DNA of 64,000 bases, taken from NCBI GenBank assembly GCA_965243135.1, contig OZ251539.1, positions 672,001 through 736,000 of the forward strand, given 5' to 3'. Shown here piece after piece: positions 1,021 through 57,250 of the stretch. Source of the stretch: Alphaproteobacteria bacterium (lineage in GTDB: Bacteria; Pseudomonadota; Alphaproteobacteria; MPNO01; UBA830). How positions within the stretch are numbered: the first letter of the stretch is position 1; every line of letters starts with the position of its first letter. The notes under the pieces are model-generated. The model was given only the letters and a program-made list of their open reading frames with translations. It made no database searches and had not been told where the DNA came from. The position numbers were made by a program, and so were the translations under genes.

Positions 1021-2289
1021 GTGACGTCGTTTCGTTTTATCCACGCGGCCGACATTCATCTCGACAGCCCGTTGAGGGGACTTGCCGGGCAGGAGGGGAG
1101 CGCGGCGGAGAGCATTCGCACCGCGACGCGCCAGGCGTTCGAACGGCTCGTCGACGCGGCCGTCGAAGAGCGGGCGGACTTCCTCGTCATTGCGGGAGAC
1201 CTCTACGACGGCGACTGGCGCGACTACAGGACCGGTCTGTTTTTCGTCGCCCAAATGGGCCGCCTGAACCAGGCCGGCATCCCGGTTTACCTCCTCTACG
1301 GCAATCACGATGCGGAAAGCCAGATCACGAAACGTCTGCAACTGCCGCAAAACGTGCGCGTCTTCAAATCCGGAAAACCCGAATCCATGCGGCTCGACGA
1401 ACTGCAGGTCGTTCTGCACGGGCAGAGCTTCCGGCAGCGGGACGTTACCGACAATCTGGCCCGGAGCTATCCGGATCCGGTCGACGGCGCTTTCAACGTC
1501 GGCGTCCTGCACACGGGGCTCGGCGGCATGGGCGGACACGAGAACTATGCGCCGTGCTCGCTCGACGATCTCGTCAACAAGGGCTACGACTACTGGGCGC
1601 TGGGCCACGTGCATCGGACCGAAGTGCTCCATGAACGGCCGCATGTCGTCTTTCCCGGCAACCTGCAGGGGCGGCATATACGCGAAACCGGCGACAAGGG
1701 CGCTTTTCTCGTCGCCGTCGAGAACGGCGAAGTCGCCGCGCTCGACCCGTTGCGCTGCGACGTCGTGCTGTGGTCGGAATTGTCCGTCGACCTCGGCGGC
1801 GCGACGAGCGTCGGCGACGCGGTGGACGGCGTTCGCGACGCCATCGAGAAAGCCGTCGGGAACGCGGACCGGCTGCTGGCGTGCAGAATTCGTCTCGAGG
1901 GCCGCACGCGGGCGCACGGTCGGCTGTTGGCGGCCGGGGACCAACTCCTCGCCGAGGCGCGCGCGGTCGCCTTGGGTCAGGGCGAAGGGTTGGCCTGGAT
2001 CGAAAAGGTCGTCGTCGCGACCGGTCCGGTCGAGGAACCCGGAGCGTCACCGGAACGCGAGGACGCGGTCGACGACTTGCTGCGGATGCTGCGGGAGGCG
2101 CGTTCCGACGAGAGCCTGTTGCGCGACCTCGACGCGGATATCGGCGAACTGGTGCGGAGGTTGCCTCGCGAAGTCCGGGACGATACCGAAGACGCGATCC
2201 TGAAAGCGGCTGTCGACGGAGACCACGAGGCGCTGATCGGCGGCGTGACGCCTCTTCTCTCGGCGCGCCTGCTTGAAGAGGAGGACTGA
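1021..2289 (+). CDS. Mre11/SbcD-like metallophosphoesterase nuclease (YhaO family)
   Basis: Motifs HAADIHLD, AGDLYD, GNHD, LHT, ALGHVH, PGNLQGR; GTG start at 1021 after GGAAGG. Confidence 0.92.
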   Translation: MTSFRFIHAADIHLDSPLRGLAGQEGSAAESIRTATRQAFERLVDAAVEERADFLVIAGDLYDGDWRDYRTGLFFVAQMGRLNQAGIPVYLLYGNHDAESQITKRLQLPQNVRVFKSGKPESMRLDELQVVLHGQSFRQRDVTDNLARSYPDPVDGAFNVGVLHTGLGGMGGHENYAPCSLDDLVNKGYDYWALGHVHRTEVLHERPHVVFPGNLQGRHIRETGDKGAFLVAVENGEVAALDPLRCDVVLWSELSVDLGGATSVGDAVDGVRDAIEKAVGNADRLLACRIRLEGRTRAHGRLLAAGDQLLAEARAVALGQGEGLAWIEKVVVATGPVEEPGASPEREDAVDDLLRMLREARSDESLLRDLDADIGELVRRLPREVRDDTEDAILKAAVDGDHEALIGGVTPLLSARLLEEED

Positions 2290-2290
2290 G

Positions 2291-5200
2291 GTGCGGCTGC
2301 GGCGGCTGGATCTTGTGCGCTACGGACGATTCACCGATCGTTCGTTCGAACTGCCCGCAGGCGCGCCGGATCTCCATGTCCTGTTCGGCCCCAACGAAAC
2401 GGGCAAGTCCACGGCGTTGTCCGCGATCGAGGATCTGCTGTTCGGCGTTCCGGTCCATTCGCCTTACAATTTCCTTCACCCGTATTCCAGCATGCGCATC
2501 GGCGGCGTCGTCGAAAACGATCAAGGGTCGCTCGAGGCGATTCGCCGGAAGGGCGCGAAAGACACCTTGCTGGATTCCGGCGACGCGCCGTTTCCCGGGG
2601 GCGAAGCCGCGCTTCGGCCGTTTCTGGCCGGAGCCGACCGGCTTTTCTTCGAGCGAATGTTCAGTCTCGATCACGTTCGGCTGGAAAAAGGCGGCCGCGA
2701 AATCCTGCAGGCGAGGGACGAACTTGGCCAGACGCTCTTCTCCGCCGGAACCGGCGTCGAGGGGCTGCGAGGCCGGCTTGCGCGGCTCTCGGACGAAGCC
2801 GACGGATTGTGGGCGAAGAAGAAAGCCAGACACCGCGAATACTACCAGGCGGACGACAGGCGGAAGGAGGCCGAAAAGAGTCTCCGCGACAACGCGCTCT
2901 CGGCCAACCAATGGCTGGAAGCCAAAAAGGCCAGGGAAGAGGCAGAATCCGCGCATGACCGGATCAACTCGGAATTCGAGAGGATCTCGGCGGAGGGCGC
3001 GCGGCTCGCCCGCGTTCGCAGGGTATATCGCTACGTTCGCCGCAAGGCCGACCTGGAGCGCGAAATCGACGCCATGGGCGAGGTCGCGCTTCTCCCGGAA
3101 AACGCCCGGCAGGCGTTCGAGGAGGCCGGGCGCAGGGAAGCGGAGGCGTCCGCCCGGATCGAAACGCTTTCCGGAACGCTGGTCAGGGCGCGGAAAGAAC
3201 TGGAAGCGCTGTCCTGCGACGACCGGCTGATCCAGCGAGCCGACGAAATCAAGCATCTGGACGAGCAGCGGATTGCGATTCGCCCCGAACGGGTCGACCT
3301 CCCGAAGCGGCGCGCGGAGCTCGCGGCCGTGGAGGACGAGGTGCGCGCGCTGGCCGGCGAACTTGACTGGAACGAGACGGAAGTCGACGGGCTCGTCGCG
3401 CGCATTCCGGCTCGCGGAAAGGTCGCCGCCGCGCGATCCCTGTTCGGTCAGCACGGCGGGCTCGCCTCGGACCTTAGAAGCGGCGCCGCCGCGTTGGAAG
3501 AGGCGGAGGCGCAGCGGAACGGTTTGCAGGAACGCTTCGAAAATGCGTCCGAAACCGCTGATTTCTCCCGGCTGGACGCGGCGATCAGGGCGGTTCGGGC
3601 GCGCGGCGACCTGTCCGGACGGGTCGGCCTCGCGGAACAAGGGCTTCGGGAAGCGCAACGCCGGGTCGACCAGGTTCTCGGTTCTCTGCAGCCTGCCGTT
3701 CCGGACGACCAAGACGTCGTGAAGATGCCGACTCCTCCGCGGGCCGCCGTACAGAAGCATCGCGACAAGGTTCGGGATTGGGAGCGTCGAGTCGGCGAAA
3801 CGGATCGCGACAGGGAAAATCTGGAGCAAGAACAGCAACGCGCTCGCGCTGACCTGCAAAGGGTCAGGAGGGATACGCGCGCCGTCATGGCGGAAGAGCT
3901 TCGGGAAGCGCGACGCGGCAGAGATTCCCTCTGGGAAATCGTAAAGCGGGTGCATGTCGAGGGGATGGCTGTTTCCGAAGGGGACGAAGCGCCGGAGGAT
4001 CCTGCGGCGGAATTCGAGGTGGCCGTGCGCGAAGCCGACGAACTCGCCGACCGAAGGTTCGACAATGCCGAGGCTGCCGCGACGCTGGCGGAAATGTCCC
4101 GAAGCATCGACGAGCGTCAGGGACGTCTGGATCAACTGCGCAAGCGGAGGGAAGCGCTTTCCGGAGAAGGCGAACGGCTGGGTGCCGATTGGCGATCCCT
4201 TTGGGGCGGCGCGGCATTCGAACCGCTCGGCCCCGACGAGATGCTGGAATGGCTGGGCGGGCGCGACGAACTTCTGGAGGCGACCGAACGCCTCGGCGAG
4301 GCGGAGGGCGCGTTGCAACTTGAGCGGGAGAGCGAACGCGCCGCGCGAGAGAGCCTCCTGACGGAGCTGGGGGATCTTGGCGTCGACCGTTCGGAGCTGG
4401 AGAATGAGGCGCTGCCCGTCGTTCTGGAGCGCGCGGACGGCATGCGGACGGAACTTCTGGCCGGAGCGGAGGCAAGGACGCGTCTGGAGGAGGAACTTCG
4501 GGAAGCCGCGTCGGAAGCCGACCGCAAGCGCAGGGAACAGGCTCGCGCGAAACAGGCATGGGAGCAGTGGCGGGAAAATTGGTCGGAAGCGCTGAACGAT
4601 CTCGGCTTTTCCGCTTCGACGAATCCGGATGTCGTGTCGGCGCGGATCGACGTCATAGACCGGATGCGCGAGAAGGCGGCGCAGATCGAGGAACTGCGCG
4701 ATCGCCGCGTCGCCAAGATTGATCGCGACATCGAACAGTTCGAGGCCCTTGTGGAGCGCGTGGTTGGAAACCTGGACCCCGATCTTGCAGGCGGCGACGC
4801 CGAAAACGCGGTTCTCGAGATCGGAAGGCGCCTCGACGAGGCGCGGCGCATAAGCGACCTCCGGGCCGCCAAGAAAGAGGAAATCGAGAAAGTCGAGGAA
4901 AGCGCGCGCGGCCACGAAAGGGATCTTCAGGAAGCGCGCGAGTCCTTCGGCCATCTGCTGGAGTTAGCCGGCGTTTCCGGAAAGGACGAACTCGACGGCG
5001 CCATCGGGAAGTCCGACGAGTTCCGCCGGTTGCGGAACGAACTGAACGAGACGCTGCGGACGCTCAAGCAGGAAGGCGACGGCCTGTCGGCAGGCGACCT
5101 GGAGGTCGAATGCGCGGATGCGGATATCGACCGAATCCCTGCGCAGGAAGAAACCAACGCTGGCGAATTGAAAGCGCTGCAGGATCGGTTGACGACAGTG

Positions 5201-5809
5201 GCTGAACAGAGAGCGCAGGCCAGGGAGGGGTTCGACGCGATCGGCGGAGACGACGCGGCGGCGAGCGCCGAGGCGGCGCGGCAGGAAGCCTTGGCCGAGA
5301 TTCGCGACGTATCCGAACGCTACGTCCGTTTACGGACTTCGGCAACGTTGCTGCGCTGGGCGATCGACCGATACCGGCGCGAAAGGCAAACGCCGCTTCT
5401 CAAGCGCGCCGGGGAGCTCTTCTCGACGATTACCGGCAATTCGTTCAGCGAACTCGGGGTCGCGTACGACGATAAGGATCAGGCGCACTTGACGGGTCTG
5501 CGGCCGGACGGACAGGTCGTCGAAGTGCCCGGCATGAGCAGCGGAACGGCGGATCAGCTCTATCTGGCTCTTCGCATTGCGAGCGTGGAAGACTATCTGA
5601 ATCGGACCGAGCCCTTGCCGTTCGTCGCCGACGATCTGTTCGTAAACTTCGACGACGGCCGGGCGGCGGCCGGCTTCGAAATACTGGGAACGCTGGCGGG
5701 GAAGACTCAAGTGCTGTTCTTCACGCATCACGCGCATCTCGTCGAAATCGCGCGAAAGGCGCTCGGCGACTCGATTTCGGTGGTCGAACTGGATGCCGAA
5801 GGGGAATGA
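2291..5809 (+). CDS. Rad50/SbcC-like coiled-coil ABC ATPase (YhaN family)
   Basis: N-terminal Walker A GPNETGKST, long coiled coil, C-terminal signature MSSGTADQLYLALR and Walker B FVADDLFVNFDD; GTG start 1 nt after the upstream stop. Confidence 0.92.
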   Translation: MRLRRLDLVRYGRFTDRSFELPAGAPDLHVLFGPNETGKSTALSAIEDLLFGVPVHSPYNFLHPYSSMRIGGVVENDQGSLEAIRRKGAKDTLLDSGDAPFPGGEAALRPFLAGADRLFFERMFSLDHVRLEKGGREILQARDELGQTLFSAGTGVEGLRGRLARLSDEADGLWAKKKARHREYYQADDRRKEAEKSLRDNALSANQWLEAKKAREEAESAHDRINSEFERISAEGARLARVRRVYRYVRRKADLEREIDAMGEVALLPENARQAFEEAGRREAEASARIETLSGTLVRARKELEALSCDDRLIQRADEIKHLDEQRIAIRPERVDLPKRRAELAAVEDEVRALAGELDWNETEVDGLVARIPARGKVAAARSLFGQHGGLASDLRSGAAALEEAEAQRNGLQERFENASETADFSRLDAAIRAVRARGDLSGRVGLAEQGLREAQRRVDQVLGSLQPAVPDDQDVVKMPTPPRAAVQKHRDKVRDWERRVGETDRDRENLEQEQQRARADLQRVRRDTRAVMAEELREARRGRDSLWEIVKRVHVEGMAVSEGDEAPEDPAAEFEVAVREADELADRRFDNAEAAATLAEMSRSIDERQGRLDQLRKRREALSGEGERLGADWRSLWGGAAFEPLGPDEMLEWLGGRDELLEATERLGEAEGALQLERESERAARESLLTELGDLGVDRSELENEALPVVLERADGMRTELLAGAEARTRLEEELREAASEADRKRREQARAKQAWEQWRENWSEALNDLGFSASTNPDVVSARIDVIDRMREKAAQIEELRDRRVAKIDRDIEQFEALVERVVGNLDPDLAGGDAENAVLEIGRRLDEARRISDLRAAKKEEIEKVEESARGHERDLQEARESFGHLLELAGVSGKDELDGAIGKSDEFRRLRNELNETLRTLKQEGDGLSAGDLEVECADADIDRIPAQEETNAGELKALQDRLTTVAEQRAQAREGFDAIGGDDAAASAEAARQEALAEIRDVSERYVRLRTSATLLRWAIDRYRRERQTPLLKRAGELFSTITGNSFSELGVAYDDKDQAHLTGLRPDGQVVEVPGMSSGTADQLYLALRIASVEDYLNRTEPLPFVADDLFVNFDDGRAAAGFEILGTLAGKTQVLFFTHHAHLVEIARKALGDSISVVELDAEGE

Positions 5810-10075: not shown

Positions 10076-10797
10076 AACGAAGGGTGCCTGACGCCCTTCC
10101 CCGTCGGCGAGACCTCGAAGTCGAGCGACTGTCGCGGTCGTGCGGGGTGCAAGTACCGGCGCCGTCGTTCGCGGCCGACCGCGGCGCCGGCGCACCTCCC
10201 GCTTCGGCGATCATGTCGAACGGGGGCCGGCGACAACGCCGCGGCGCGAAACTCGACGACCGACCTTTTCTCCGTTTCTCGCGCAAGGTATGCCGCGGAC
10301 GGCGGCCGGGAACCCGGCAGGCACCGCGGGCGTTGCCGCGTTCGTCGAGTCGCTTCCTCGGCTTCGCCGTGGGCGGCCCGCTCAAGCTCGTTCGCCGAAG
10401 AGGCCGACTTCAGGCGTTTCAGCTCGTTGCGCGCCGCCTCGGCGCGCGCGCTGCGTTTTCCGGAACGTCGCCTGCCAACCTCTACCTCCGCGCGACATTT
10501 CCGCCTCTTGGCGCGCCTCGTCCCGCCGGGCCGTTGCCGGCGGCAAAGCCCCTCGTCCGTCGGTTGCGGCAAAAAACGAGAGGCGAAGGATCCCGTGTCC
10601 GGTCCGTGGACGAAATTTTTTCGTCCCCTGGGTAGCGAACGCTTACAGACTATCAATACGAGATTCGCGAGGAGGCCGATCGTCTTGACGCGCATAGTGC
10701 GGGCGTCCCGGAACCCGAACGCCGCGCAGCGGCCGATTGCCGGCCCCGCTTGCTTCCCGCAGCCGGGCGAGGTCGTTCCGAAGACTGCGGGTAACCT

Positions 10798-12411
10798 CAG
10801 CAATTCCCGCTAAGGCTCAAAACCCTTGGAAAATATGGGGTCGGGAAAAAATTTTTCGTGGACTTTTCGAGGTGATTCGGGGCTATTTGCCTTCAAGCGG
10901 AGCATTTTTCTCTGGAAAGTGGTCCGAAGGCGAGGCGGGATTGTACCAAAATGGCCAGAATGCCAGGCATGCGCAAGACGCTCAGCGCTCCGGGGTTGCT
11001 GAAGGAAGTGCGAGCTTGTTTCGACCGTATCGAAGATCCGATTGCCAGCCGGGGGCTGAACCAGACGGACTGTCTGATGTCGGGTTTGGCGGTGTTCGGT
11101 ATGAAGTATGCGTCGCTTCTCGACGATGCCGCGCACGCCGACGAAGCGGTTCGGCACAACCTCGCGAACTTGCGTCAAGCGTGTGCCGTCGGACTCTGCG
11201 ATGCGAGAACGGCTTGACGAAGTCTGTCCGCGGCAATTGCGGCGTTGTTTCACGAAGATGTTCCAAGTTTTGCAACGAGGCAAGGGGCTGGAACAATACA
11301 CTTGTCTGAACGGGTATTACGCTCTTTCGAGGAACGGGATACTTTTCGTCGGACAAGGTGCACTGTAAAAACTGCTGCGAGAAACATCACCGCGACGGTA
11401 CGATTACCTACTACCACCAGATGTTGGGAGCCGTTCTGGTGCACCCGGAACAGAAGGAGGTTTTTCCGTTTGCACCGGAATCGATCCTGAAGGGAGACGG
11501 CGCAAAAAAGAATGATTGCGAAGCGGCGAAACGGCTTTTGAAAGATGTGCGTCGTGAACACCCGCACCTGAAGTTGATCGTGTTGGAGGATGGGCTGGCC
11601 TCAAATGGACCGCATGTCAATCTTCTCAAGGAGTTAGACATGCGTTTCATACTGGGTGCAAAGCCTGGCGACCACAAGTTCCTGTGGGTCAACAACGCGC
11701 CGTCCGTGGAGCACCGGGAGTTCACGGACGAGGACAACATACGGCACGAATTCCGGTATCTCAACGGAGTGCCTCTGAACGATACGCACTTCGACCTCAA
11801 AGTGAACTTTCACTGGGAGAAGCTTCCAAACGGCAAGAAACAACGTTTCTCCTGGGTCACGGATCTGCCAATTGACGAAGAGAACCTGATGGAGTTGATG
11901 CGCACCGGGCGGGCGCGCTGGAAGATCGAGAACGAAACTTTCAACACCCTGAAGAACCAAGGCTACTGCTTTGAGCACAACTTCGGTCACGGTAACAACA
12001 ATCTGTCGACTGTTTTCGCGTTCCTGATGATGCTAGCGTTCCTGATTGACCAGATTCAACAGCGATGTTGCAAACTGTTCCAACAGGCGCAAACGAAGGC
12101 CAAGCGGCCCATTTACTTCTGGGAAAAAGTGCGGGCATTGTTTCTCGACTACTTCCTGAAGGACTGGGAGACGCTCTACCGAATGATCGCGTTTGGACAC
12201 CGGAAAGCAGTGGGAATTCCCTACGATACCTCCTGACCCAGCACCGTGTCCGAGTGTGCTAAAGCAGGTTTTTCAGGGGAAGCAGGGTAGTCAAGGCTAT
12301 GTCGGCGCCAGGCCGAAGCGGGAAAGGTGCGTCGCGACGGCTGGTCCCTCGGTAACGATGCTATCTCGACGCGCCTTTTGCAAAGGGCGGCCACCTTAGC
12401 GGGAATTTCTG
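10798..12411 (+). mobile_element. IS element copy 1 (1614 bp, degenerate; unclassified DDE/ISNCY-like)
   Basis: Terminal inverted repeats CAGCAATTCCCGCTAAGG / CCTTAGCGGGAATTTCTG; 9-bp target duplication GGGTAACCT at 10789-10797 and 12412-12420; near-identical to 45986-47633. Confidence 0.95.
10951..12236 (+). pseudogene. DDE transposase pseudogene
   Basis: Split across ORFs 10951/11108/11358; six 5-6 bp deletions relative to the intact 46139-47458. Confidence 0.93.
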
Positions 12412-12523
12412 GGGTAACCTGATCCTGAAACTCCATGCTGGCCGCCGTACCGAATCGGCTTCCCCGGTGCGGAGCGCAGGCGGACGTGGGGAGGTGCGCG
12501 GGGATTTTGGGCGTCCGCCTCGG

Positions 12524-13987
12524 CTAAAGGGCCGACGTCCGCCAGAGATCGATAGCGCGAATGATACTTTCTTCAAGCCAGGGAGAAAAGCGATTCTCCG
12601 CCTGCTGCCTCGGTTCCCTGTAGTTGATCTGGAATACGCTGTCCGTCACAGGCTTGATCGCCCCTATCTCGCGTTCCCCCTCTTCGGTTTCGACTCTCTG
12701 GAACCAGCAAGACGAACATGCGAGCACGCCCTGATATTCCGGTCCAATCCCGTGAAACGATATCAATAATTCGCTTTGGTCGGTATTTCTCATAACCAAC
12801 CTCGCCCAAGAGCGATATGTGTGGGTATTTGCAAAATAACCAAGTTCTTTCGCTGTCTGCACGATTTGAAAGCGATAATAATGGTCATTGCTTTCGCCGT
12901 GTACGGCGCCGCCCGAAAAGAAAGTCGCATTCGTTATCAGTCCCTGCGTTTCCCTCTTCATGGTTTCCGCTATTTCGCTCAGGCGTTGAACCGTAGATTC
13001 GTGAAGCGATTTGGCGAGGTCTCGCGCAGCTTGCCATTCTTTCGCTAAAGATTGCTTCTTTTTCTGTAATTCTTTCCGAACTGCCAGAATTGCGTCCTCG
13101 GCGCGAGCTGATTTGATAACATCTTGGGCAATGCTCAAGGCTCTTATGAATTCGTCCTTTTGCAATCTTGAAAAATACTCGACCAATTGTCCGAGATCGC
13201 CCGCATCCGCAGCCTCGAGAGCTCCAATGTAAATGCTGCGCTCCCGGTCACGAACGACTAGCGGAAACCAACCATGCTTCACGAAAACCAGCGTAGCCAG
13301 CGCTCTTGCCACGCGCCCGTTCCCATCCTGAAAGGGATGAATTTGAGTGAATCTGTGATGCAGCCATGCTGCTTCCACTTCAGGTTGGACGCTGCTCCTT
13401 TCGTGATCGAGATGCATATCGATCAAACGATCCATTTCGCCGGATACGTGAATAGGCGGGCAATACTCATGAACTGCGCCATTATGCCTTTGGGGATTGT
13501 TGGGTTGTTTTTTGTACTCTCCAGAAATCAACGGGACTTGAACGGTTCTTCCCAAATTATCGACGCCTTCCACCGTAGATTGATGATTGGTAAAACGACA
13601 ATGTATTTCCTTTATATAACTTGTCGATAAACTGCGTTCTCCTTTTATGAATTCAAAAATGCCGTCGACAACGGATTCGTGATCGTTGATCATGGAAACG
13701 ACGATTTCAGGGTTTCGTGCCGCATTATGTGGAATGAGTGATGCGTCAATACCGTGTTCGATCAACAGCTGAGTGATGCCTCTATCGAGAACGTATAGGC
13801 GTTCAACCAAACCGGTTTCTATAGCCCACTCGCGCTTCAATTTTTCGTTAAATTTTTGGAACGCGTCCAATCCTTGGAGTCGGTCTCGTTGTTCTTGCCA
13901 TACGCTTGCAAGCGTTCTGAGTTCGGGTTGCGACAGTTTTTCCGGGCTAACGGTATAGTCGTCAATCGGCGTCCATCCATGGTTCAT
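12524..13987 (-). CDS. Fic-domain protein with long C-terminal extension
   Basis: Canonical HPFQDGNGRVAR motif; visibly more AT-rich than the flanks. Confidence 0.9.
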   Translation of the reverse strand: MNHGWTPIDDYTVSPEKLSQPELRTLASVWQEQRDRLQGLDAFQKFNEKLKREWAIETGLVERLYVLDRGITQLLIEHGIDASLIPHNAARNPEIVVSMINDHESVVDGIFEFIKGERSLSTSYIKEIHCRFTNHQSTVEGVDNLGRTVQVPLISGEYKKQPNNPQRHNGAVHEYCPPIHVSGEMDRLIDMHLDHERSSVQPEVEAAWLHHRFTQIHPFQDGNGRVARALATLVFVKHGWFPLVVRDRERSIYIGALEAADAGDLGQLVEYFSRLQKDEFIRALSIAQDVIKSARAEDAILAVRKELQKKKQSLAKEWQAARDLAKSLHESTVQRLSEIAETMKRETQGLITNATFFSGGAVHGESNDHYYRFQIVQTAKELGYFANTHTYRSWARLVMRNTDQSELLISFHGIGPEYQGVLACSSCWFQRVETEEGEREIGAIKPVTDSVFQINYREPRQQAENRFSPWLEESIIRAIDLWRTSAL

Positions 13988-17912: not shown

Positions 17913-18731
17913 GTGGAAATCAATGAAGTGACCAGTTTCGAACAAGCGTTCGGCGATGCGGAAAACGCGGCCGAAGCGGCCCGAAAGTCCGCGTCCCAGG
18001 TGGTCTCGCAGGCCAAGGCCCTGACGAAAGCCGCGCAAAGCGGCAACATCGCCGCCATCAAACGCGGCCAGGAGAAACTCAAGGAAGCCTTGGCGGAGCT
18101 TGAGCAGGAGGTTTCCAACGCCAGCGCCTGTTGGCCGTTTACGGACGAGGAAGAGAAGCGGAAATTCGACGACGGATATGCCGCCGAGCTCCAGAACGCT
18201 GCCGACGGGATCGGCCTGAAAATCTACGAACGGGACGGACTTCTGATTTCCTATCCATCCATCGTGCGCACGTTGTCGGCGGACTGCGCCGTGAGGGTGG
18301 ACAGGAAGAAGGTTTCCACGATAAGGCCGTCGTATCTTGCCGATTTTCTGCTCAAAAATCAGAACAAATCCAGCGGGTTTCCGCCGGAACGTTTTCTTGA
18401 GACGTTGCATGCCGTTTACAAGGAAGTGGTTTCCGAAGGGGCTTCGGGTCTTGCGCAGGGCAGCGGCGGCCGCGTCGTTCCGCTGGCCAGAATTTACAGG
18501 CTGATAACGGCCCTGCCGGGCGGTTCGCGGGAATACGATCGCGCGGATTTCGCTCGGGATCTGTACAAGCTCGACTCGGAGGGGATCGACCGCACCAAAA
18601 GCGGAGCCGCGGTCTCCTTTCCGTCTTCGACGGGAACCCGCCGGCGTTCGAGCGACCTGTTTTCGTTCGTCGGACCGGACGGCAATAACGTCGAGTACTA
18701 CGGCATCCGCTTCAGTGAGAACGACGCATGA
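17913..18731 (+). CDS. Hypothetical protein (N-terminal coiled coil; possible C-terminal winged-helix-like region)
   Basis: Clean ORF. Start placed at in-frame GTG 17913 because of the promoter; the stop overlaps the next start (ATGA). Confidence 0.8.
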   Translation: MEINEVTSFEQAFGDAENAAEAARKSASQVVSQAKALTKAAQSGNIAAIKRGQEKLKEALAELEQEVSNASACWPFTDEEEKRKFDDGYAAELQNAADGIGLKIYERDGLLISYPSIVRTLSADCAVRVDRKKVSTIRPSYLADFLLKNQNKSSGFPPERFLETLHAVYKEVVSEGASGLAQGSGGRVVPLARIYRLITALPGGSREYDRADFARDLYKLDSEGIDRTKSGAAVSFPSSTGTRRRSSDLFSFVGPDGNNVEYYGIRFSENDA

Positions 18732-19687
18732 ACAACGCGATATCCGGCGACGAGTGGCTTGACGTCATTGATGCGGAATATCTTTCCACCTTCGTCAGGG
18801 ACGGCGGATCCGCCGTCAAATTCGCGGTGACGGGAGAGGAACGAAGACCGTCCATATCGGAAAAGATAAAACTCAAATGCGAGGCGTCGAATTACGTTTT
18901 TGCGCAACTGAACGCCGTCGACAGCCGCATGCATATGCCGCAGGACATTTTTTTCGGACTGGCGTCCCGGATCGACTGGCGGCTATTGGCGCGCCGCGTC
19001 GTCTTGCGCCTTCTTTCGGAGACGAAGTATCGCGTCGACGGCATCGATCCCGGCGGGGCCGGCAACGTCGTCGACGCCGTAGCTTACGCCAACGGGCTTG
19101 AATCTCAAACCGTTGTCTTCGAACTTAGGAGGGCCTTGGAGAGGGAGGTATTGAAAAATCCCAATCTGGCGAAGGCGTTTCGCGGGGCCATGCATCATCT
19201 CTGCCTGATCGAGTGCGATAGCGCTGCGCCCGGGGAGTATGCCGGGCAGCCGTTGCTGGATTGGCTCACGGGCGTCAACATCCGCGTCGGCAACGTGCGC
19301 CAGTTCGGGATACATACCGGCATAAATCGAACGACGGCGCGCTATTTCGTGGAGTCGGCCTTTCACTGGGTGCGTCAGGCGGAATATTCCGGAACGGTCA
19401 TTTTTTTGGACAACAGCCGCGTGCTCTTGGCTCGCAACCCGAGAGACGGCCGACGATACTATACCAGGGCGATGACGATGGATCATTACGAATTGCTGCG
19501 CGAGTTTATCGACGACGTGGATCGATTGTCGGGAGCGTTGCTGATCGTTGCGACCGATTACGATTTCGTGGACGAGCAAGCGCCGAGGGGGTGGAGCGTC
19601 TACGACGCGCTTCGGACGAGAGTGATGGACGACGTGCGGGACAGGAACCTGGTCAATCCAGCGGCCGCGCTGGTGAGGCTTTCATAG
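18728..19687 (+). CDS. DUF2791/BrxD-like P-loop protein with degenerate Walker motifs
   Basis: GGSAVKF strand, LLDWLTG, YSGTVIFLD, YELLREFIDD, YDALRTRV resemble BrxD/DUF2791; no GxxxxGK[ST], and Walker B reads LDN. Confidence 0.72.
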   Translation: MNNAISGDEWLDVIDAEYLSTFVRDGGSAVKFAVTGEERRPSISEKIKLKCEASNYVFAQLNAVDSRMHMPQDIFFGLASRIDWRLLARRVVLRLLSETKYRVDGIDPGGAGNVVDAVAYANGLESQTVVFELRRALEREVLKNPNLAKAFRGAMHHLCLIECDSAAPGEYAGQPLLDWLTGVNIRVGNVRQFGIHTGINRTTARYFVESAFHWVRQAEYSGTVIFLDNSRVLLARNPRDGRRYYTRAMTMDHYELLREFIDDVDRLSGALLIVATDYDFVDEQAPRGWSVYDALRTRVMDDVRDRNLVNPAAALVRLS

Positions 19688-19699
19688 GGGGCCGGTCGG

Positions 19700-20962
19700 A
19701 TGCCGAACCAGGAAAACGCGACGCTGGATTCCCGTCGGGCGATCGAAGCTTTGCGCAACGGCGTTCCGAACCGGGAAGCCGTGCGCCAGTTGGGCTGCAA
19801 TCAGCCGCAGGCGATCGCCCGTTTCCGCGAGATGCTGGATCATGCTGTCGAGCGTCGCGAGTCTCCGGACCGGGGCATGGTGATTTCGGGAGATTTCGGT
19901 GCGGGAAAGTCGCACCTTCTGGGTTATCTGGAACACATGGCGCTGTCCCGGAACTTCGTTTGCAGCAGGGTGGCGATCAGCAAGGAAACGCCGTTCTACG
20001 ATCTCGGAAAGGTGTTCGCGTCCGCCGTCGAGAACGGTCGCCTGCCCGACCGGGGCGGACGCTTCGTCGAAGAGTTGGCGGCGGCTTTGAAAAGCGACCC
20101 GGACGCATGCGGGGATTTCCTCAGGTGGGCCGAGGTTGCCGCCGACGACGGACTCTTGAATCAAGTCTTTGCCGCGAGCCTGCGAGTATACGATAGAACT
20201 CAGGATTCCGAATTGAGTCACGATATCGAATCCTTTTGGGCCGGAGACAGAATGCGGACTGCGAGCATACGCGGCGGGCTCAGGCAGATCGGGGAGTCGA
20301 AAAAGTACAAGTTCCGGGCTCCGAAGGTTTCGGAACTCCCGCCTCAGCGGCTTCGGTTCGCGATCGAGCTCGTCAAATACGCAGGTTACAATGGCTGGGT
20401 CATTTTGCTGGACGAAATCGAACTTATGGGTTCGTATTCGATATTGCAGCGCGGACGTTCCTATGCGGAGGTGGCGCGATGGATGGGACTCGCCGAAGGC
20501 GAGGCGTACCCCGGGATGATCGCGGTCGGCGCGGTAACGGCGGATTTCGCGTCCGTCATCATCAGTCCCGACGGGCAGAAGAGGGACCGGGACTACATCC
20601 GTCCGAAGCTGGAAGGCAACCCCAGATTCAACGTGATTTGCGGACGGGCGGAAGCCGGCATGCGAGTGCTGGAGGACGACTGCCTGGCCTTGGAATCGCC
20701 CAGCGAAGCGGACTTGAATCAAACCGTGGAGAAGTTGCGGCTGTTGTACGAAAACGCCTATGGGTGGTCGCCGCCTATGCAGAATGCGACCATCGGAGGC
20801 GCGGGATTCCAGAGACGAATGCGACACAAGGTGCGCGCCGCGATCAACGAATGGGATTTGATCCGGCTGCATCCTGATTACGGACCGGATACGGAGGTCG
20901 ATCCTTATTCTACAGGATACGAGGAAAATTCCGATCTGGAGCGCGAATCCCGGGACGGGTAG
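19700..20962 (+). CDS. DUF2791/BrxD-like P-loop ATPase
   Basis: AIEALRNGVP N-terminus, Walker A GDFGAGKS, Walker B GWVILLDEIE. Confidence 0.82.
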   Translation: MPNQENATLDSRRAIEALRNGVPNREAVRQLGCNQPQAIARFREMLDHAVERRESPDRGMVISGDFGAGKSHLLGYLEHMALSRNFVCSRVAISKETPFYDLGKVFASAVENGRLPDRGGRFVEELAAALKSDPDACGDFLRWAEVAADDGLLNQVFAASLRVYDRTQDSELSHDIESFWAGDRMRTASIRGGLRQIGESKKYKFRAPKVSELPPQRLRFAIELVKYAGYNGWVILLDEIELMGSYSILQRGRSYAEVARWMGLAEGEAYPGMIAVGAVTADFASVIISPDGQKRDRDYIRPKLEGNPRFNVICGRAEAGMRVLEDDCLALESPSEADLNQTVEKLRLLYENAYGWSPPMQNATIGGAGFQRRMRHKVRAAINEWDLIRLHPDYGPDTEVDPYSTGYEENSDLERESRDG

Positions 20963-20985
20963 CTTCCGGCCGGCCGGAACGCAGC

Positions 20986-23013
20986 GTGCCCATACCCTTC
21001 CGCGAGGAAAGCGAGTCCGCCGGCGTCGTGGCGTGGCTGCGGGTCGTCGAAGACGGGCGCGGCGTTCGGGCCGCTCTTTTCGAAACTACGGTCGCCGGGG
21101 AGCCGCTGGGGTATTGTTTCGCCGGGGCGGGAGAAGACCGGCTGGATGACCGCGCCGCGGCCGGCGCAAGATTGGCGAAATCGCTGTTCCGCGCGTCCCC
21201 GAATTCGCCGGTTCTGCTGCTGGGATCGGCGGACGATCCGCTTCCAGGGGCGGACGAGATAGGCGTGCCGTTCGGTCGCGTTCGACCGGCATGGCCGCCG
21301 CCCGCGGTCGCCGCCCCTGCGAACTGCGCCGACGGCCTGTCGTGGTCGACGGAGCCGCCGCGACCGGCATCGGAGGCCGCCGGAGCGCTTCGCGAAATCG
21401 GGAAGCGGGCCGATCCGTTCGAACCGCTCGAGCGGACGGCCAAGGGGCTCGAAGAGGCGTTCGGCGATCCGCAAGTTCGGACCCTGACCGGCCTTCAGGG
21501 CCTGACGACGGTCATTTCGTTGCCGCCGCCCCCTGAAGCCCCGGGAGCGCCGGATACCTTCGGGGAATCGTCTTTCCGATTTCCGCCGGAGAGCGCGGTC
21601 GGCCGCGGCCTGGCGGAACGGTTGTGGAGGATTCTGGCCAAGCCCCGGAGAATCCCGCTCTTGGATACGCGCCTGGAATGGCCGGCGACCCTTATGCCGT
21701 TTCAGCTCGACGGAGTGCGCGCGTTGATCGAGATGGATCGCCTGCTTCTGTCGGACGACATGGGGCTGGGCAAGACCGTGCAAGCCGTGGCGGCGTTACG
21801 GCTTCTCAAGCTGGGCGGACGGATCCGGTCGAGCCTTGTGGTCGCTCCCGCGAGCGTGCTCGATCAGTGGAGGCGGGAGATCGCGAAGTGGGCGCCGGAA
21901 CTGTCGGCGATCATCGTCCGAGGCTCGGCCGAGGATCGAGCTTGGCAATGGAAGGCCGCGACCGATTGTACGCTGACGAGTTACGAAGTCTTGCGTTTCG
22001 ACGCGGGCGATCTGCGCAAGCTCAGGGCAACGCCGTGGGACGTCGTCGTGTTGGACGAGGCGCAGCGGATCAAGAACCGAAACGACACCAGCGAAGCCGT
22101 GAAGAACGTTCCGAGGCGCCGTTCGTGGGCGTTGACGGGCACTCCCATCGAGAATCACGAGGACGACCTGGCTTCCATCATGGAGTTCGTCGACTGCGAC
22201 GGAAAAACGCCGCCCAAGCGTTACTTTCCCGGCGCGGCGCTGCTGACGCGGCATCGGGAAGTGCAGCTCCGGCGAAAGAAGAGCGACGTATTGAAGGAGC
22301 TGCCTCCCAAACTGGAGACCAAATTGGCGATTGCGTTGCATCGGGAGCAGTGGGCCAGTTACGAAAAGGCGGAACGCGAAGGGATCGTATTTCTCAAGTC
22401 GCTCGGAAAAGAAGTCGGCATCGGCCACATGCTCGAACTGATTACCCGCCTGAAGCAGATTTGCAACGCCGATCCCAGAACGGGAGCCTCAAGCAAGCTG
22501 GACAATATACACGACAGACTGCGGGAGTTGACGGCGCAAGGCCACAAGGCTCTGGTTTTTTCTCAATACGTCGGCGACATTTCGGGCGTGGCCGCCGCCG
22601 CCAGGCGCCTGCGCGAGTTCAATCCGCTCGTTCTGACGGGCGACACTCCTCTGGAGGAGCGTTCGTCCCTATTGGATCGATTCAAGACCCGGGACGAGCA
22701 CAAGGCGATCGTCATATCGTTGCGGGCGGGCGGCCTCGGGCTTAATTTGCAGGAGGCCTCCTACGTTTTCCATCTGGATCGCTGGTGGAATCCCGCCGTC
22801 GAACGACAGGCGGAGGACAGGAGCCATCGTCTCGGGCAGAAGGTCAAGGTGAACGTGATCAAGTACTCCTGCGTCGGCACGATCGAGGAACGCATAGACC
22901 GAATTCTGGAGCAAAAGCAGAAGTTGTTCGAGAAGGTCGTCGACGACGTCTCGCTGGACCTGTCTGCGCGACTCAGCCGGGAGGAAATGCTGGAATTGTT
23001 TGGACTGCGTTAG
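20986..23013 (+). CDS. SNF2-family helicase/translocase with unknown N-terminal region
   Basis: DDMGLGKT, LDEAQRIKN, LTGTPIEN, ALVFSQY, GGLGLNLQ, DRWWNPAVERQAEDRSHRLGQ. Confidence 0.92.
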   Translation: MPIPFREESESAGVVAWLRVVEDGRGVRAALFETTVAGEPLGYCFAGAGEDRLDDRAAAGARLAKSLFRASPNSPVLLLGSADDPLPGADEIGVPFGRVRPAWPPPAVAAPANCADGLSWSTEPPRPASEAAGALREIGKRADPFEPLERTAKGLEEAFGDPQVRTLTGLQGLTTVISLPPPPEAPGAPDTFGESSFRFPPESAVGRGLAERLWRILAKPRRIPLLDTRLEWPATLMPFQLDGVRALIEMDRLLLSDDMGLGKTVQAVAALRLLKLGGRIRSSLVVAPASVLDQWRREIAKWAPELSAIIVRGSAEDRAWQWKAATDCTLTSYEVLRFDAGDLRKLRATPWDVVVLDEAQRIKNRNDTSEAVKNVPRRRSWALTGTPIENHEDDLASIMEFVDCDGKTPPKRYFPGAALLTRHREVQLRRKKSDVLKELPPKLETKLAIALHREQWASYEKAEREGIVFLKSLGKEVGIGHMLELITRLKQICNADPRTGASSKLDNIHDRLRELTAQGHKALVFSQYVGDISGVAAAARRLREFNPLVLTGDTPLEERSSLLDRFKTRDEHKAIVISLRAGGLGLNLQEASYVFHLDRWWNPAVERQAEDRSHRLGQKVKVNVIKYSCVGTIEERIDRILEQKQKLFEKVVDDVSLDLSARLSREEMLELFGLR

Positions 23014-23106
23014 CGTGGAAGGCGTCGCCGCCGACTTGGCCCGCAGGCGGGCGGACGCTCCGATGGCGGGTTGCCGCGGCGCGGGGCACCTTTCGTCAAA
23101 TAATAG

Positions 23107-23135
23107 TTGATTCCGCGAATCGGCGAGGCTACTAT
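23107..23135 (+). promoter_or_regulatory. Sigma70-type promoter, probably giving a leaderless transposase mRNA
   Basis: TTGATT (23107-23112), 17-bp spacer, TACTAT (23130-23135), then 6 nt before ATG 23142; no Shine-Dalgarno. Confidence 0.65.
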
Positions 23136-23141
23136 CGGCGT

Positions 23142-25300
23142 ATGCAAGTTGGACTTCACCGTTTCCATGCGGACAGCATCGAGTGGCTCCGAACTGCGGT
23201 CGCCGAAGGCGGTCGCACCCGGCGTCAGCTGGCGCAAGAGCTGTGCGAGCGCGAGAACTGGCGCAACGAGAAGGGCGAACTTTGCCTCGCCTCGGCGCGG
23301 CGCGTTCTGCCGAAGCTCGCCGGGAAACTCGGGATCGCGTTGCCGCCGCCGCGGGAGCGCCTGCCGCAGAAGGCGCCGACCCGGGATTTTCCGGATCTGC
23401 CGCTTCGCTGCAGTCTGACGGAGATCGGCGAGGTCGCGCTGGAGCCGGTTTCGGGGAGCGCCGACAGGCAACGGTGGCGTTCGATGATGGAGACCCATCA
23501 TCCGCAGCGCTGGATGCGTCCGCCGGGCGCGCAAAGGTGTTACTGGATCGCGTCGTCCCGCCATGGCCGGCTGGGCGGCATCGGTTTCTGCGCCGCCGGC
23601 TGGCACCAGAAAGCGCGCGACGAGTTCGTCGGCTGGTCGGCGGACGCGCGGGTCGCCAACCTTCAGCGGATGGTCAACAACAACCGATTTCTCCTGTTGC
23701 CGGGGGTGCGCGTGCACGGGCTTGCGTCGCGCGTTCTCGACCTCGCGGCGGCGCAATTGCCCGGCGACTGGGAAGCCGCCTACGGCGTGCGTCCGCTGAT
23801 GGCTTACACTTACGTCTCTCCCGACCATTCGGGCGCCTGCTATCGCGCGGCAGGGTGGGAGCGCTGCGGCAGACCGACTTCGGGGCTGCCGCCGGGCGCC
23901 GAGGCGAGGGGCGTCGGGCGGTCGGTCTGGATGAAGCCGTTGGCCGCCGACTGGAAGGAGCGGCTGCGCCGGAAGCCGGAGCGGACGCTCGGCCTCGCCC
24001 CCGAGGCACCTCCGTCCGACGATTGGGCGGAACGGGAATACGGTCGCGGAACGCACCCGGACGGACGCATTCGCGGTCGCATGGTACGAATGGGGCGCGC
24101 GTGGGAGGAACGTCCCGGCCAGCCGGTACCGGTAATCTTCCCGGACAAGGAAGATCAGGACGCGGCCTACCGGCTGCTGTCGAACCCGAGGGTGAACGTG
24201 GAGCACGTTCTCGAGTCGCACGAGGAATGCATGGTCGAGCGCTGCCGCAGGGAACGCGTGGTTCTGGCGGTTCAGGATACGACGATCCTGAACTGCAACG
24301 GCCTGCAAGCCGCCGCCGGTCTGGCGCCGCTTGGCGGCGGCGGGTCGGGAACCAAAGGCGTCGCCGCCCATTTCGGACTTGCGATCACGACCGCAGGACG
24401 CCCGCTCGGGGTCTTCGAGGCCGCCGTGCGCGACGACAAGGACGAAAGCGTCCGCTGGCTCAAGCACTTCGACAAGGCGCAGGAGATTGCGCGCGCCTGT
24501 CCCGGCACGCGGGTCGTTGCCGTGTGCGACCGGGAAGGAGACATCTGGGAACTGCTGTCGAGGGCGGTCGCGGCGGGCGCCGGCCTGGTGGTGCGCACCT
24601 GCCGCTCGAAGCGGCGGCGCGTGCTGTGCGAGGACGGCGGCAAAAAGGGTCTTTGGGACTACATGGCGGAACGGCCGGTGCTGAGATCGCTGAACCTCGC
24701 CGCCTGCGGCGGCGGGAAAACGCGCAAGAAACGCGAGGCGACGCTCGACATCCGCGCCGCCCGCGTCCGGCTCGCGCCGCCCGGCGACAGGACCGGCGAC
24801 GCGCCTCTCTCCATGCTCGCCGTGTCGGTCGCAGGACCGCAAGATCGGCTGTTGCTCGCCACCGAGGGAAAGACCGAAAACGCGATACGCATTGTCGAAT
24901 GGTACGAACGGCGCTGGACGCTTGAAGAATACTTCAAGACCCTCAAGTCCGGCATGGGCGTCGAAGACCGGCGATTCGACGACGCCGACGACCTTCGAAA
25001 GTGCCTCGCCTTCGACGCGGTCACCGCATGCCGGGTCTTCGACCTCCGGGCGCGGGACAGGCCGGACGCTCCCGCCGCCGAAGTCCGCGGACGAAGATGA
25101 AATCGCGGCGCTTCGCCCCGCCGAACGAGGCATGGTCAAGAGCGGGAAGCCGGCCGAAAACCTCGACGGCCGAACCTTCGTGGTCGGCGCAGGACGGGCT
25201 TTCGTCTCAACGCCGGCCGTTGCCCGGAACCATCCGGCGAGGCCGCGGCTGCCTTGAGGCCTGCGTTCCGCCAAGCGCCGCGGAACGACGACATGCCCGA
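23142..25300 (+). pseudogene. DUF4338 (DruA-like) domain fused to IS4/Tn5-like transposase, degenerate
   Basis: N-half has RDEFVGWS...NNNRFLLLP..V..LASRVL...YRAAGW (DUF4338). C-half has AAYRLLSN, VLAVQDTT, VCDREGD, WYERRWTLEEYFKTLKSG (IS4 DDE/YREK). The 3' end is frameshifted over three frames; right end not found. Confidence 0.85.
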
Positions 25301-44671: not shown

Positions 44672-44689
44672 GAGTTGTCTCCGAACCAT

Positions 44690-45281
44690 GGCGCCCTGGC
44701 GTCGAGCCTCGCGCCCTCGGTGCCCGCGAACCGCGACAGGAAGCAATCGCAGTCGTGGTCTGGCGGATCCCGCCAACGGGCGTGCCGGTGGCCCATGCCG
44801 GTATCGGCGATCATGTCGACGAGCCGGCCGAGTCGCCGCCCGTCGATGGTCGGGCGGGCATAGTCCTTTGGTCGTGTATCCGCGAGTGCCCGATTATCGC
44901 GCTCGACCCCCGCATCGTCGGCCGATAGCAGGCTGTCGGGCCTTGAGACGAGTTCAGCGGGCCTCGGGCGGCGCACGGAAAATGCTGTCGGCGTGGCGTT
45001 CACCCTCGGCGCTCCGCGCCCGCTCCGCCTATGAGCGGATGGGCCTTTCCGTACACGCATTCGAAGCGGGTCGGCAGGGGATGACCTGCCCCAGCGCTCG
45101 GCCGTTCAAGGCGCGCAGGACATCTCCCGCAACCCGGCCTCGCGGGCAGTCGTGTCATCGCTGGGCTTCGTCCCCCAAGCGCTGCGCCGCTTCTCTGCCT
45201 TCCCGGCGCCATGGCCCTTGTCTTTCGATCAAAACCTGCGCCGCCGACGCGAGCCGGAGGCCCCATGAGGATCCATAACAT
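44690..45281 (-). pseudogene. hsdM: Type I R-M methyltransferase N-terminal remnant
   Basis: VERDNRALADTRPKDYARPTIDGRRLGRLVDMI...FLSRFAGTEG matches the HsdM pattern IERDNPxLxxVLPKDYARP.LD..RLG.LID...YFL..FA.AEG; heavily frameshifted. Confidence 0.72.
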
Positions 45282-45964: not shown

Positions 45965-45985
45965 GGAACCTCCTCCAGCTTGGTA

Positions 45986-47633: not shown

Positions 47634-47942
47634 AGCTTGGTATGTCGAGCAAACCGGCTGATCGCTCGTATTCTCCTTTTAGCATAGAAGTGCGAGCGGG
47701 TATACCTCCGGGAGCCAAATCGCAACGCTGGCGGAGTTCTTTTTGGACGCCATCCGCCGCCGGAATGCATCATCATGCGTCACATAAATCCCAAGAAGCA
47801 TCGGTCTATGTTTCTGGTTTTGCCTCCTCAGGGAACGATGCACCGAGTATATTGAGCAATAGGACGACCTCGGTTTTGTACTCTGCCATATTCGTGAAGA
47901 TCGAGATTTTATTCTACTATATCCTCTATTCAAGAAGTTGAG

Positions 47943-56799: not shown

Positions 56800-57250
56800 C
56801 CGACCGGCCGCCGACATGGGTAGGACGCATCATGCCGGTCCGGAAAAGGCGGTAGCGCAAGAGACCGCCGAACGACGAACCGGCCGGCGCTCTCGGTGAG
56901 CATCCTGCGTTGTTCGCTGGATGCGTACGACCGTAGGGCCAGCATCAAGCCGACTGTGCATCGTCATGTACCGCGCTGTCCAGCTGTTGGGGCGAACGGG
57001 AAGCAGATGCGGCATTCATTGCTTCACGGACCATCGCGACTGCGGCGTTTGCGAGAGGCACAGGAACGCCATCGGCGATTCTTATGTCGACCGCGCTGCC
57101 CGAGCCGGAATTCCTGACGCTCGGAAGTGGTCAGGCTCTGCGACCCTCGCAGAAAGGAATGAAACCCGGTTTTGGATTCAGACTGGCTCGGCGGCGTTTC
57201 AGGGATCGTGCAACGCGGTTGCTATTGCGACGCGCAATGGATCGAAACCA
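56800..57250 (-). pseudogene. RloB-like remnant
   Basis: Overlaps the end of the ATPase gene. SLKRRRASLNPKPGFIPFCEG resembles the basic N-terminus and Toprim-like CEG motif of RloB, followed by a stop/frameshift. Boundaries approximate. Confidence 0.55.

Follow-up and report, generated by a model that had tools for sequence, protein, structure and literature searches.

A narrow 5- to 6-bp deletion spectrum in the decayed insertion sequences and other repeats of an alphaproteobacterial genome

The repeated DNA in the genome of a sponge-associated alphaproteobacterium loses short pieces of a strongly preferred length, 5 or 6 bp. We analyzed a window of 64,000 nucleotides from Alphaproteobacteria bacterium (NCBI GenBank assembly GCA_965243135.1, contig OZ251539.1, positions 672,001 to 736,000 of the forward strand; coordinates below are those of the window unless called genome positions). 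Two copies of an IS4-like insertion sequence (IS) lie in the window, of which copy 1 is decayed and copy 2 is intact. Together with the other repeat families of the genome, the two copies support an undescribed fixed-length (5- to 6-bp) deletion process that acts across the repeats. The process is visible in DNA under relaxed selection, here the decayed IS copies from many families as well as pseudogenized paralogues. It makes deletions only, it uses no microhomology, and it prefers pieces with an A-T 5' end (often ATC) on one strand or with a TCGA or GATC end. That about 70% of neutral indels measure 5 or 6 bp and carry an end motif, without microhomology and with no end-joining genes found, implies an undescribed DNA transaction.

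Six gaps in one copy of an insertion sequence

Copy 1 (10798 to 12411, forward strand; 1614 bp, lineage C2) has intact terminal inverted repeats. Copy 2 (45986 to 47633, forward strand; 1648 bp, subfamily A) is an intact master copy with a transposase open reading frame (ORF) of 439 amino acids (aa) at 46139 to 47458 on the same strand. A MAFFT alignment of window positions 10780 to 12430 against 45968 to 47660 and an affine-gap global alignment agree on exactly six gaps in copy 1, of 6, 5, 5, 6, 6, and 6 bp in order, which sum to 34 bp and thus equal 1648 minus 1614. An initial annotation, made from the letters alone, had described six missing pieces of 5 to 6 bp totaling 34 bp, and both alignments return them exactly. 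It was also right that all the deletions lie in the ORF, with all six inside 46139 to 47458, and that 1-bp indels are missing, with 84 substitutions and zero indels beyond the six gaps. The offsets of repeat matches from copy 1 to copy 2 climb through 35188, 35199, 35204, 35210, 35216, and 35222, consistent with the gaps.

The junctions, all read on the forward strand, can be followed through the related copies. Deletion 1 (11119 to 11120) removed 6 bp, either TGCAAT or GCAATT (copy-2 positions 46308/9 to 46313/4), and is also found in a sister copy at genome position 5977956. Deletion 2 (11171 to 11172) took the 5-bp piece ATACG (46366 to 46370) and is shared with the copies at genome positions 5977956 and 376974; it is the first frameshift, and the transposase frame of copy 1 is lost from this point onward, the longest surviving ORF being 11358 to 12236. 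Deletion 3 (11330 to 11331) took TCGAT, 5 bp (46530 to 46534), and with it the Asp codon of the SIDGT motif, as the annotation had correctly read; it is absent from the sister copy and present in the copy at 376974. Deletion 4 (11522 to 11523) removed the 6 bp CGCAAC (46727 to 46732) at a tandem AACGC AACGC site where two other copies lost 5 bp. Deletion 5 (11683 to 11684; 6 bp, GTTCGA or TTCGAG, 46894/5 to 46899/900) occurs in four of the six decayed copies of the element, and deletion 6 (11811 to 11812; 6 bp, TCGAAT, 47028 to 47033) is not in the sister copy.

Four of these six deletions overlap or abut TCGA, which the annotation had put at about a dozen occurrences in the ORF and which we count at 12; random placement gives a mean of 0.55 deletions touching TCGA among six and a probability of 0.0009 for at least four. 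The sliding ambiguity, or microhomology, at the six sites is 0 to 1 bp, within the limit of about 2 bp given earlier. Many TCGA sites are still present in decayed copies. The claim of six independent events did not survive. Copy 1 and its sister at 5977956 are 2 substitutions apart, and four of the six deletions are already in the sister, so these are not six events at the copy-1 locus; only two, the losses of TCGAT and TCGAAT, are newer and specific to copy 1 relative to the sister.

The other copies of the element repeat the pattern. Six are decayed and fall into two lineages, C1 (genome positions 3067512, 278286, and 1361200) and C2 (376974, 682798, which is copy 1, and 5977956), about 6% apart and each about 5% from the young subfamilies A and B. 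They carry 3, 3, 4, 6, 11, and 18 gaps, all of 5 to 6 bp except for one 1-bp gap beside a 5-bp gap, and zero insertions, and the 21 young copies (A and B together) carry no such deletions. Within the IS lineages, substitutions and deletions number 2 and 2, 8 and 9, and 39 and 15, so that deletions roughly keep pace. Deletions have also passed from copy to copy, both when defective copies transposed and through patchy gene conversion, and some sites have been struck repeatedly. The copies at 3067512 (C1) and 376974 (C2) are 89 substitutions apart and have 8 deletion sites in common. In the C1 copy at genome positions 3065958 to 3067512, three consecutive C2-derived alleles lie within alignment columns 380 to 440, beside shared deletions at columns 383 and 436; site sharing between C1 and C2 is due in part to such patchy gene conversion. 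At column 898, lineage-specific alleles stand 13 to 18 bp on either side of the gap, and one lineage lost 5 bp and the other 6 bp, so that this part of the sharing looks like independent events.

Sizes and ends of deletions across the repeats

The source genome is a single contig of 6.10 Mb with 65% GC and a completeness of 98.8%, and self-comparison finds 1.15 Mb of it (19%) in repeats of at least 300 bp. Elements of at least 600 bp were clustered into 25 families with 3 or more members each, 246 copies altogether; after aligning every family, we tallied the distinct gaps that only a minority of its copies carry. The initial annotation had proposed a fixed-length deletion process and, as its check, an alignment of all IS copies in the genome; the alignment of IS and other repeat copies yields a clear peak at 5 to 6 bp, with 305 of 434 minority gaps having one of these two sizes (143 of 5 bp and 162 of 6 bp). 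The remainder comprises 33 gaps of 7 bp, 51 of 1 to 4 bp, and 45 of at least 8 bp, several of the last being 11 to 12 bp, as two adjacent events would give. The five largest families taken alone show the peak (148 of their 184 minority gaps), and 22 of the 25 families contain at least one 5- to 6-bp gap, in agreement with the proposed process. Gaps held by a majority of copies add 119 events, 76 of them of 5 to 6 bp, in small, wholly decayed families of unclear polarity. No true insertions of 5 to 6 bp were seen among these families; the majority-gap events in the large families measure 1, 2, 3, and 12 bp.

Some families behave differently. Families 5, 13, and 14 have gaps in multiples of 3 bp or none and resemble selected genes. 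The largest family, which is not an IS, consists of 103 gene copies of about 1.58 kb (e.g., genome positions 1213872 to 1215456) encoding an AAA-ATPase_like domain (PF09820) and a PD-(D/E)XK nuclease domain, PDDEXK_9 (PF08011). The ORF is kept in 87 of these copies, and in-frame losses of 6 bp outnumber losses of 5 bp by 22 to 9.

Motif statistics rest on 375 events of 5 to 6 bp. Microhomology was scored as the slide of the breakpoint in 148 events, of which 69, 48, 23, and 8 have slides of 0, 1, 2, and at least 3 bp, respectively. This is about what random sequence gives, the chance level being an estimate from base composition and not a shuffle, and the earlier argument against slippage stands, with 140 of 148 breakpoints at 0 to 2 bp. 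The deleted pieces are poorer in GC than their surroundings (53% versus 64%), and AT stands at the start or end of 202 of the 375 pieces against 33.7 expected; as the 5' dinucleotide on either strand it is enriched 6.3-fold. ATC/GAT, ATCG, and GATC are also enriched at piece ends. TCGA lies at an end in 39 pieces (8.4 expected) and anywhere within ±1 bp in 47 (13.2 expected), an enrichment of 3.6- to 4.6-fold, and GATC lies at an end in 19 (5.2 expected). The bias toward TCGA claimed in the initial annotation is therefore real and is only one part of a wider preference for AT, ATC, and GATC ends.

Other features of the pieces refine the picture. Palindromes of GC only are depleted at piece ends, and any 4-bp palindrome is found in 114 of the 375 pieces (77 expected), most pieces (ATCAG, ATTCG, ATACG, CTGAT, and others) being without one. 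When pieces are oriented by the end that carries AT and set against all 2619 AT sites in the family consensuses, C at position +2 and G at position +5 are in excess (ATC-N-R-G; p = 1e-7 and 2e-6), and a search for an extended motif out to ±20/25 bp found nothing past the deleted piece and the first flanking base. Symmetrized over strands, the boundary profile reads C|A-T, with C at -1 (0.39 to 0.45), A at 0 (0.27 to 0.33), and T at +1 (0.32 to 0.42), and six-mer pieces favor T at position 2 and A at position 5. Both ends carry AT in 18 events, fewer than independence predicts (odds ratio, 0.37; p = 4e-4). One site may lose 5 bp in one copy and 6 bp in another, with one boundary fixed. All 22 deletion sites of the IS lie in its ORF, 20% of the element being noncoding, and in the related family 2 two deletion events lie in the 3' noncoding part. 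Private substitutions in the decayed copies number 861, of which 481 are C>T, an ordinary spectrum, and C>T changes sorted by 5' base occur at 47.6 to 60.3 per 1,000 in all four contexts, with no context effect.

Decayed repeats of a genome that is probably a long-read metagenome assembly invite suspicion, repeats being the hardest DNA to polish, and two other accounts have to be considered, an artefact of sequencing or assembly and ordinary pseudogene decay whose regularity is due to chance. We find that an artefact is unlikely, and together the two accounts are very improbable. Among the matches listed, outside contigs span one of the six copy-1 junctions: Logan contigs of two studies cross deletion 5 with 0 gaps (run X1, 11627 to 11743; run X6, 11627 to 11712). 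Four metagenome runs report no inserted or missing letters against the window, and contigs of undeleted copies from independent sponge metagenomes end loosely at 11120, at the junction of deletion 1; where runs X1, X2, and X9 have no contig over part of copy 1, the missing cover was not counted as evidence. The 21 young copies have the same local sequence and are intact, which excludes a motif-dependent read error, and the deletions are inherited in nested fashion between loci. As a control, we took decayed homologous IS copies (3.6 to 9.2% divergence) from four further genomes of sponge symbionts, also long-read and assembled in the same style. Only 2 of their 46 indels measured 5 to 6 bp; the rest of the spectrum is normal, with insertions and deletions of 1 to 3 bp plus a few large deletions, and these genomes show 593 substitutions versus 40 indels. 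The peak is accordingly neither a product of the assembly pipeline nor intrinsic to the IS. Intact homologous IS copies in six other genomes show no 5- to 6-bp pattern either, these being best-scoring copies and so not a fair test. Pseudogenes of a same-genus relative, G002, show the signature: four pseudogenized copies of the AAA-ATPase family carry 6 gaps at 5 sites, all of 5 to 6 bp. Chance regularity fares no better, with 305 of 434 gaps in two adjacent sizes lying far from a smooth decay spectrum.

Weighing of mechanisms

Our favored reading, to which we give a probability of about 40%, is that copy 1 is a dead, trans-mobilized IS4-like copy marked by a lineage-particular process that excises 5 to 6 nt from one strand and is sealed unfilled. 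One strand would be nicked 5' of an A, or at TCGA, and a fixed-length tract of 5 to 6 nt would be taken out of the nicked strand. Occasionally the ordinary NAD-ligase would close the gap while it is still unfilled, the resulting 5- to 6-nt loop on the other strand would evade MutS-dependent mismatch repair, and replication would then fix the deletion. MutS-dependent repair handles loops of about 1 to 4 nt in Escherichia coli, and both MutS and RNase HII are present in the source genome. We propose excision from one strand because the events are deletions only, lack microhomology, have a one-ended motif, follow a 5-or-6 ruler, rarely measure 1 to 4 bp, and occur where end-joining genes were not found.

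Several points weigh against this reading. The sealing of an unfilled gap is a step that we purely infer, the loop limit is carried over from E. coli, and the enzyme that would set the 5- to 6-nt ruler is hypothetical. The motif is weak: 173 of the 375 events have no AT end, and only 13 of the 68 AT dinucleotides of the IS are deleted, so that we regard the motif as a preference, not a recognition site, and do not claim strict hot spots. The ATCGAT-like, quasi-palindromic consensus would suit a dimeric double-strand cutter, which keeps some weight here, and a requirement for just one good half-site could produce the negative association between the ends. The private events, which are few, show no bias with respect to the replication strand. 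"Genome-wide" here means all repeat families and not all DNA, and same-genus relatives are 63 to 91% identical in pieces, mostly about 70%, which limits comparison of single-copy and intergenic DNA. Outside contigs span the single copy-1 junction described above. Finally, G002 contains a decayed IS copy (2087567 to 2090287, interrupted by an insertion of about 1.2 kb) whose gaps measure 1, 1, 2, and 7 bp, with the 5- to 6-bp class missing, which also speaks against a simple genus-wide rule. A second same-genus genome, G004, has one 6-bp gap among 17 AAA-ATPase copies and IS gaps of 6 bp and of 10, 1, 11, 4, and 1 bp; its copies look functional, and it says nothing either way.

The main rival is a staggered double-strand cut, in which a two-fold symmetric nuclease or an enzyme of the transposase/integrase type would cut the strands 5 to 6 bp apart at (A)TCGA(T)-like sites, the overhangs would be lost, and the blunt ends would be rejoined. 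The symmetrized C|A-T profile at each boundary, the enrichment of the palindromes TCGA and GATC at piece ends, and the T at position 2 and A at position 5 of six-mers all suit it, as does the stagger, 5 to 6 bp being the spacing of many DDE integrases. We nonetheless consider it unlikely: Ku and an ATP-dependent ligase were not found, most cohesive 5' overhangs would be expected to religate or, once filled in, to leave +5/+6 duplications, of which none are seen, the clear IS families make target duplications of 8 to 9 bp and not 5 to 6 bp, and AT at both ends is under-represented relative to independence. Restriction self-damage, the kind of model suggested by the initial annotation, in which resident restriction enzymes would occasionally cleave unmethylated TCGA/ATCGAT/GATC-type sites and imprecise repair would remove them, draws on the same enrichment of TCGA and GATC at deleted ends, on the four copy-1 deletions that touch TCGA, and on a defense island in the window itself. 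Its trimming and end-joining step does not fit a genome in which neither Ku nor an ATP-dependent ligase was found. TCGA lies within ±1 bp in only 47 of 375 events, most pieces lack a 4-bp palindrome (114 have one against 77 expected), and many TCGA sites survive in decayed copies. Known enzymes for such sites leave overhangs of 2 or 4 nt, not 5 to 6, and we judge this explanation improbable.

A process directed at repeats, a bacterial counterpart of fungal repeat-induced point mutation (RIP) in which multicopy DNA is recognized, for example by means of guides or by copies pairing with one another, and eroded in 5- to 6-bp bites and unique DNA is spared, would explain why all events seen lie in repeated DNA and why 22 of 22 IS sites fall in the ORF despite 20% of the element being noncoding. 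It would also suit the loss of the same sites in lineages 6% apart and a deletion load that ranges from 3 to 18 among copies of similar substitution distance. However, only repeats were examined, and for the present the confinement of the events to them counts as an ascertainment effect. The 21 young, identical copies of subfamilies A and B carry no such deletions, a prokaryotic Argonaute (pAgo) was not found, and deleted intervals show no enrichment for between-copy differences (0.45 versus 0.45 and 0.43 versus 0.42), contrary to sensing of heteroduplexes or mismatches. Gene-conversion patches account for part of the site sharing, family 2 has its two 3' noncoding events, and the substitution spectrum is ordinary; with these points, a defense of this kind appears doubtful indeed, if somewhat less so than restriction self-damage. 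Slightly better placed, and still quite unlikely, is a dedicated ruler activity at A-T/TCGA-type sites that would cut 5 to 6 bp preferentially from repeated or foreign, AT-richer DNA as defense or streamlining, and that would disable transposases through frameshifting bites much as fungal RIP does through point mutations. The 103-copy AAA-ATPase and PD-(D/E)XK family is a conceivable candidate source of such an activity. In relatives, this family has 22 matches in G004 (20 of them strong), frameshifted copies only in G002, and a split copy in genome G003.

Gene content bears on these choices. In the source genome, a search for Ku (PF02735) gave 0 matches, with a positive control in Bacillus subtilis, and UvdE was not found. 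In the source genome, G002, and G004, there were 0 matches to ATP-dependent DNA ligase of the LigD/LigC type (PF01068), to type IB topoisomerase (PF01028; Deinococcus control positive), and to the Piwi domain of pAgo (PF02171). We accordingly rejected cleavage that depends on a type IB topoisomerase or is guided by pAgo, neither gene having been found, and UVDE-type incision, UvdE not having been found. Mismatch cuts by NucS/EndoMS in heteroduplex were rejected on the fraction of variable columns in deleted intervals, which equals that in random intervals (0.45 versus 0.45 and 0.43 versus 0.42 in families 1 and 2); for NucS itself there is only a weak NucS_C-like match of 33.8 bits. The open frame containing this match is listed as 424 aa, and the longest ORF that covers it has 407 aa. 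Abortive attack by resident transposases with 5- to 6-bp duplications fails on the 8- to 9-bp duplications given by the clear IS families here; the scan for target duplications allowed offsets of ±10 bp, and its short values are noise. Loss of Okazaki primers or another lagging-strand process finds no strand bias in its favor (14 versus 8 of 22 private events; p = 0.29). Deaminase-triggered excision at TC was rejected on C>T changes that show no TC context, and slippage or microhomology-mediated joining was rejected on microhomology at the chance level.

Relation to known processes and to the insertion sequence

The nearest concept is the deletional bias of bacterial pseudogenes and dead mobile DNA, reportedly set out by Mira, Ochman, and Moran in 2001. 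As there, deletions exceed insertions in unselected DNA and dead IS copies shrink. The known spectrum, however, is broad and dominated by 1-bp events, as in the four control genomes, whereas here 70% of gaps fall in two adjacent sizes, events of 1 to 4 bp are rare (51 of 434), and an end motif is present. On the prevailing view, 1-bp slips and deletions spread over many sizes predominate among spontaneous indels in bacteria. The nearest mechanism in kind is the TOP1/ribonucleotide signature (ID4/ID-TOP1) of yeast and human, which consists of 2- to 5-bp deletions and needs a type IB topoisomerase and short tandem repeats. Both are narrow-size, enzyme-made deletions in which an oligonucleotide is lost from one strand and the strand is resealed, without insertions. 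In this genome, by contrast, RNase HII is present and a type IB topoisomerase was not found, the deletions lack a repeat context (slide of 0 to 2 bp in 140 of 148), and they differ in size, at 5 to 6 bp, and in motif.

Other processes are more distant. The scars of nonhomologous end joining (NHEJ) by Ku/LigD are likewise small deletions at breaks without long homology; they vary in size and include insertions, and here Ku and an ATP-dependent ligase were not found. Replication slippage and microhomology-mediated end joining also produce short deletions that arise in DNA synthesis, slippage usually yielding 1-bp or repeat-unit indels, whereas here microhomology is at chance and tandem-repeat sites such as AACGC AACGC are few. 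Fungal RIP resembles the present case in that repeated mobile DNA is progressively inactivated and host genes are left intact; RIP makes C-to-T transitions, whereas here we see 5- to 6-bp deletions and ordinary substitutions without context. Literature searches over titles and abstracts returned no description of a 5- to 6-bp deletion spectrum in bacteria, and their sole match to "5-6 bp deletions" was a paper profiling Cas9 and NHEJ.

The process accounts for the abundance of frameshifted transposases in the source genome, and gaps of 5 to 6 bp with AT or TCGA ends offer a marker for screening other genomes. If the deletions are a by-product of repair, they would constitute a new mutational signature and would offer a natural measure of how large a loop mismatch repair can handle. 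If they are directed at repeats, they would represent a bacterial analogue of RIP, the first of its kind, and a new means of taming transposons.

The element itself belongs near the IS4 family, with which it shares a single DDE-type transposase ORF, terminal inverted repeats, and a 9-bp target duplication. Its termini, CAGCAATTCCCGCTAAGG and CCTTAGCGGGAATTTCTG, are inverted repeats that match at 17 of 18 positions. Copy 1 is flanked by the 9-bp target-site duplication GGGTAACCT (10789 to 10797 on the left and 12412 to 12420 on the right), and copy 2 is flanked by AGCTTGGTA, also of 9 bp (45977 to 45985, with the right copy at 47634 to 47642). All 27 IS copies have a target duplication of at least 9 bp, 9 bp in 11 and 10 to 12 bp in 16, the longer values including chance extension; the IS10 and IS50 groups also make 9-bp duplications. 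The likeness to IS4 has its limits: the copy-2 transposase has no Pfam family at E<=0.01, and the NCBIfam IS4 model NF033591 matches it with 20.8 bits over residues 312 to 376 only, short of the cut-off of 152. The element belongs to a distant, unnamed group that is common to other sponge symbionts. Relatives of the transposase at 61 to 73% aa identity, up to about 57 matches per genome, occur in other sponge-symbiont long-read genomes, the hosts being sponge-associated Gammaproteobacteria, Rhodobacterales, and Thermodesulfobacteriota. This distribution suggests that the IS group has spread horizontally within sponge microbiomes.

Copy 1 moved recently. In run X1, a sponge metagenome of 2022, a 749-nt contig runs from 10788 directly on to 12412, the two sides having 9 bases in common, and represents the empty site; the insertion is therefore polymorphic and recent, and the already-broken copy must have been moved in trans by the transposase of another copy. 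Among the young copies, subfamily A has 8 members, of which six (copy 2 included) are at 100%, seven at 100% or 99.94%, and the eighth at 99.76%; subfamily B has 13, with 98.85% identity to copy 2. The copies of subfamily B (genome positions 236300 to 237948 and 12 others) have a 1-bp insertion at element position 148 that brings an upstream start into frame and gives an ORF of 478 aa versus 439 aa.

A protein-atlas comparison of the source genome gave matches from mixed phyla, with Acidobacteriota ranking first. Cumulative GC skew places the origin of replication near 5.15 Mb and the terminus near 1.7 Mb, with unequal replichores. In the window, genes of defense type surround both IS copies (2273 to 5809, 12524 to 13987, 18728 to 25100, 42902 to 44776, and 57222 to 58598). 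They include AAA_27, Fic, two BrxC/BrxD-like ORFs, an SNF2/ResIII helicase, a DruA-like gene, a Schlafen AlbA_2 plus HATPase_c_4 gene, and an AbiEii-like AAA_21 ATPase.

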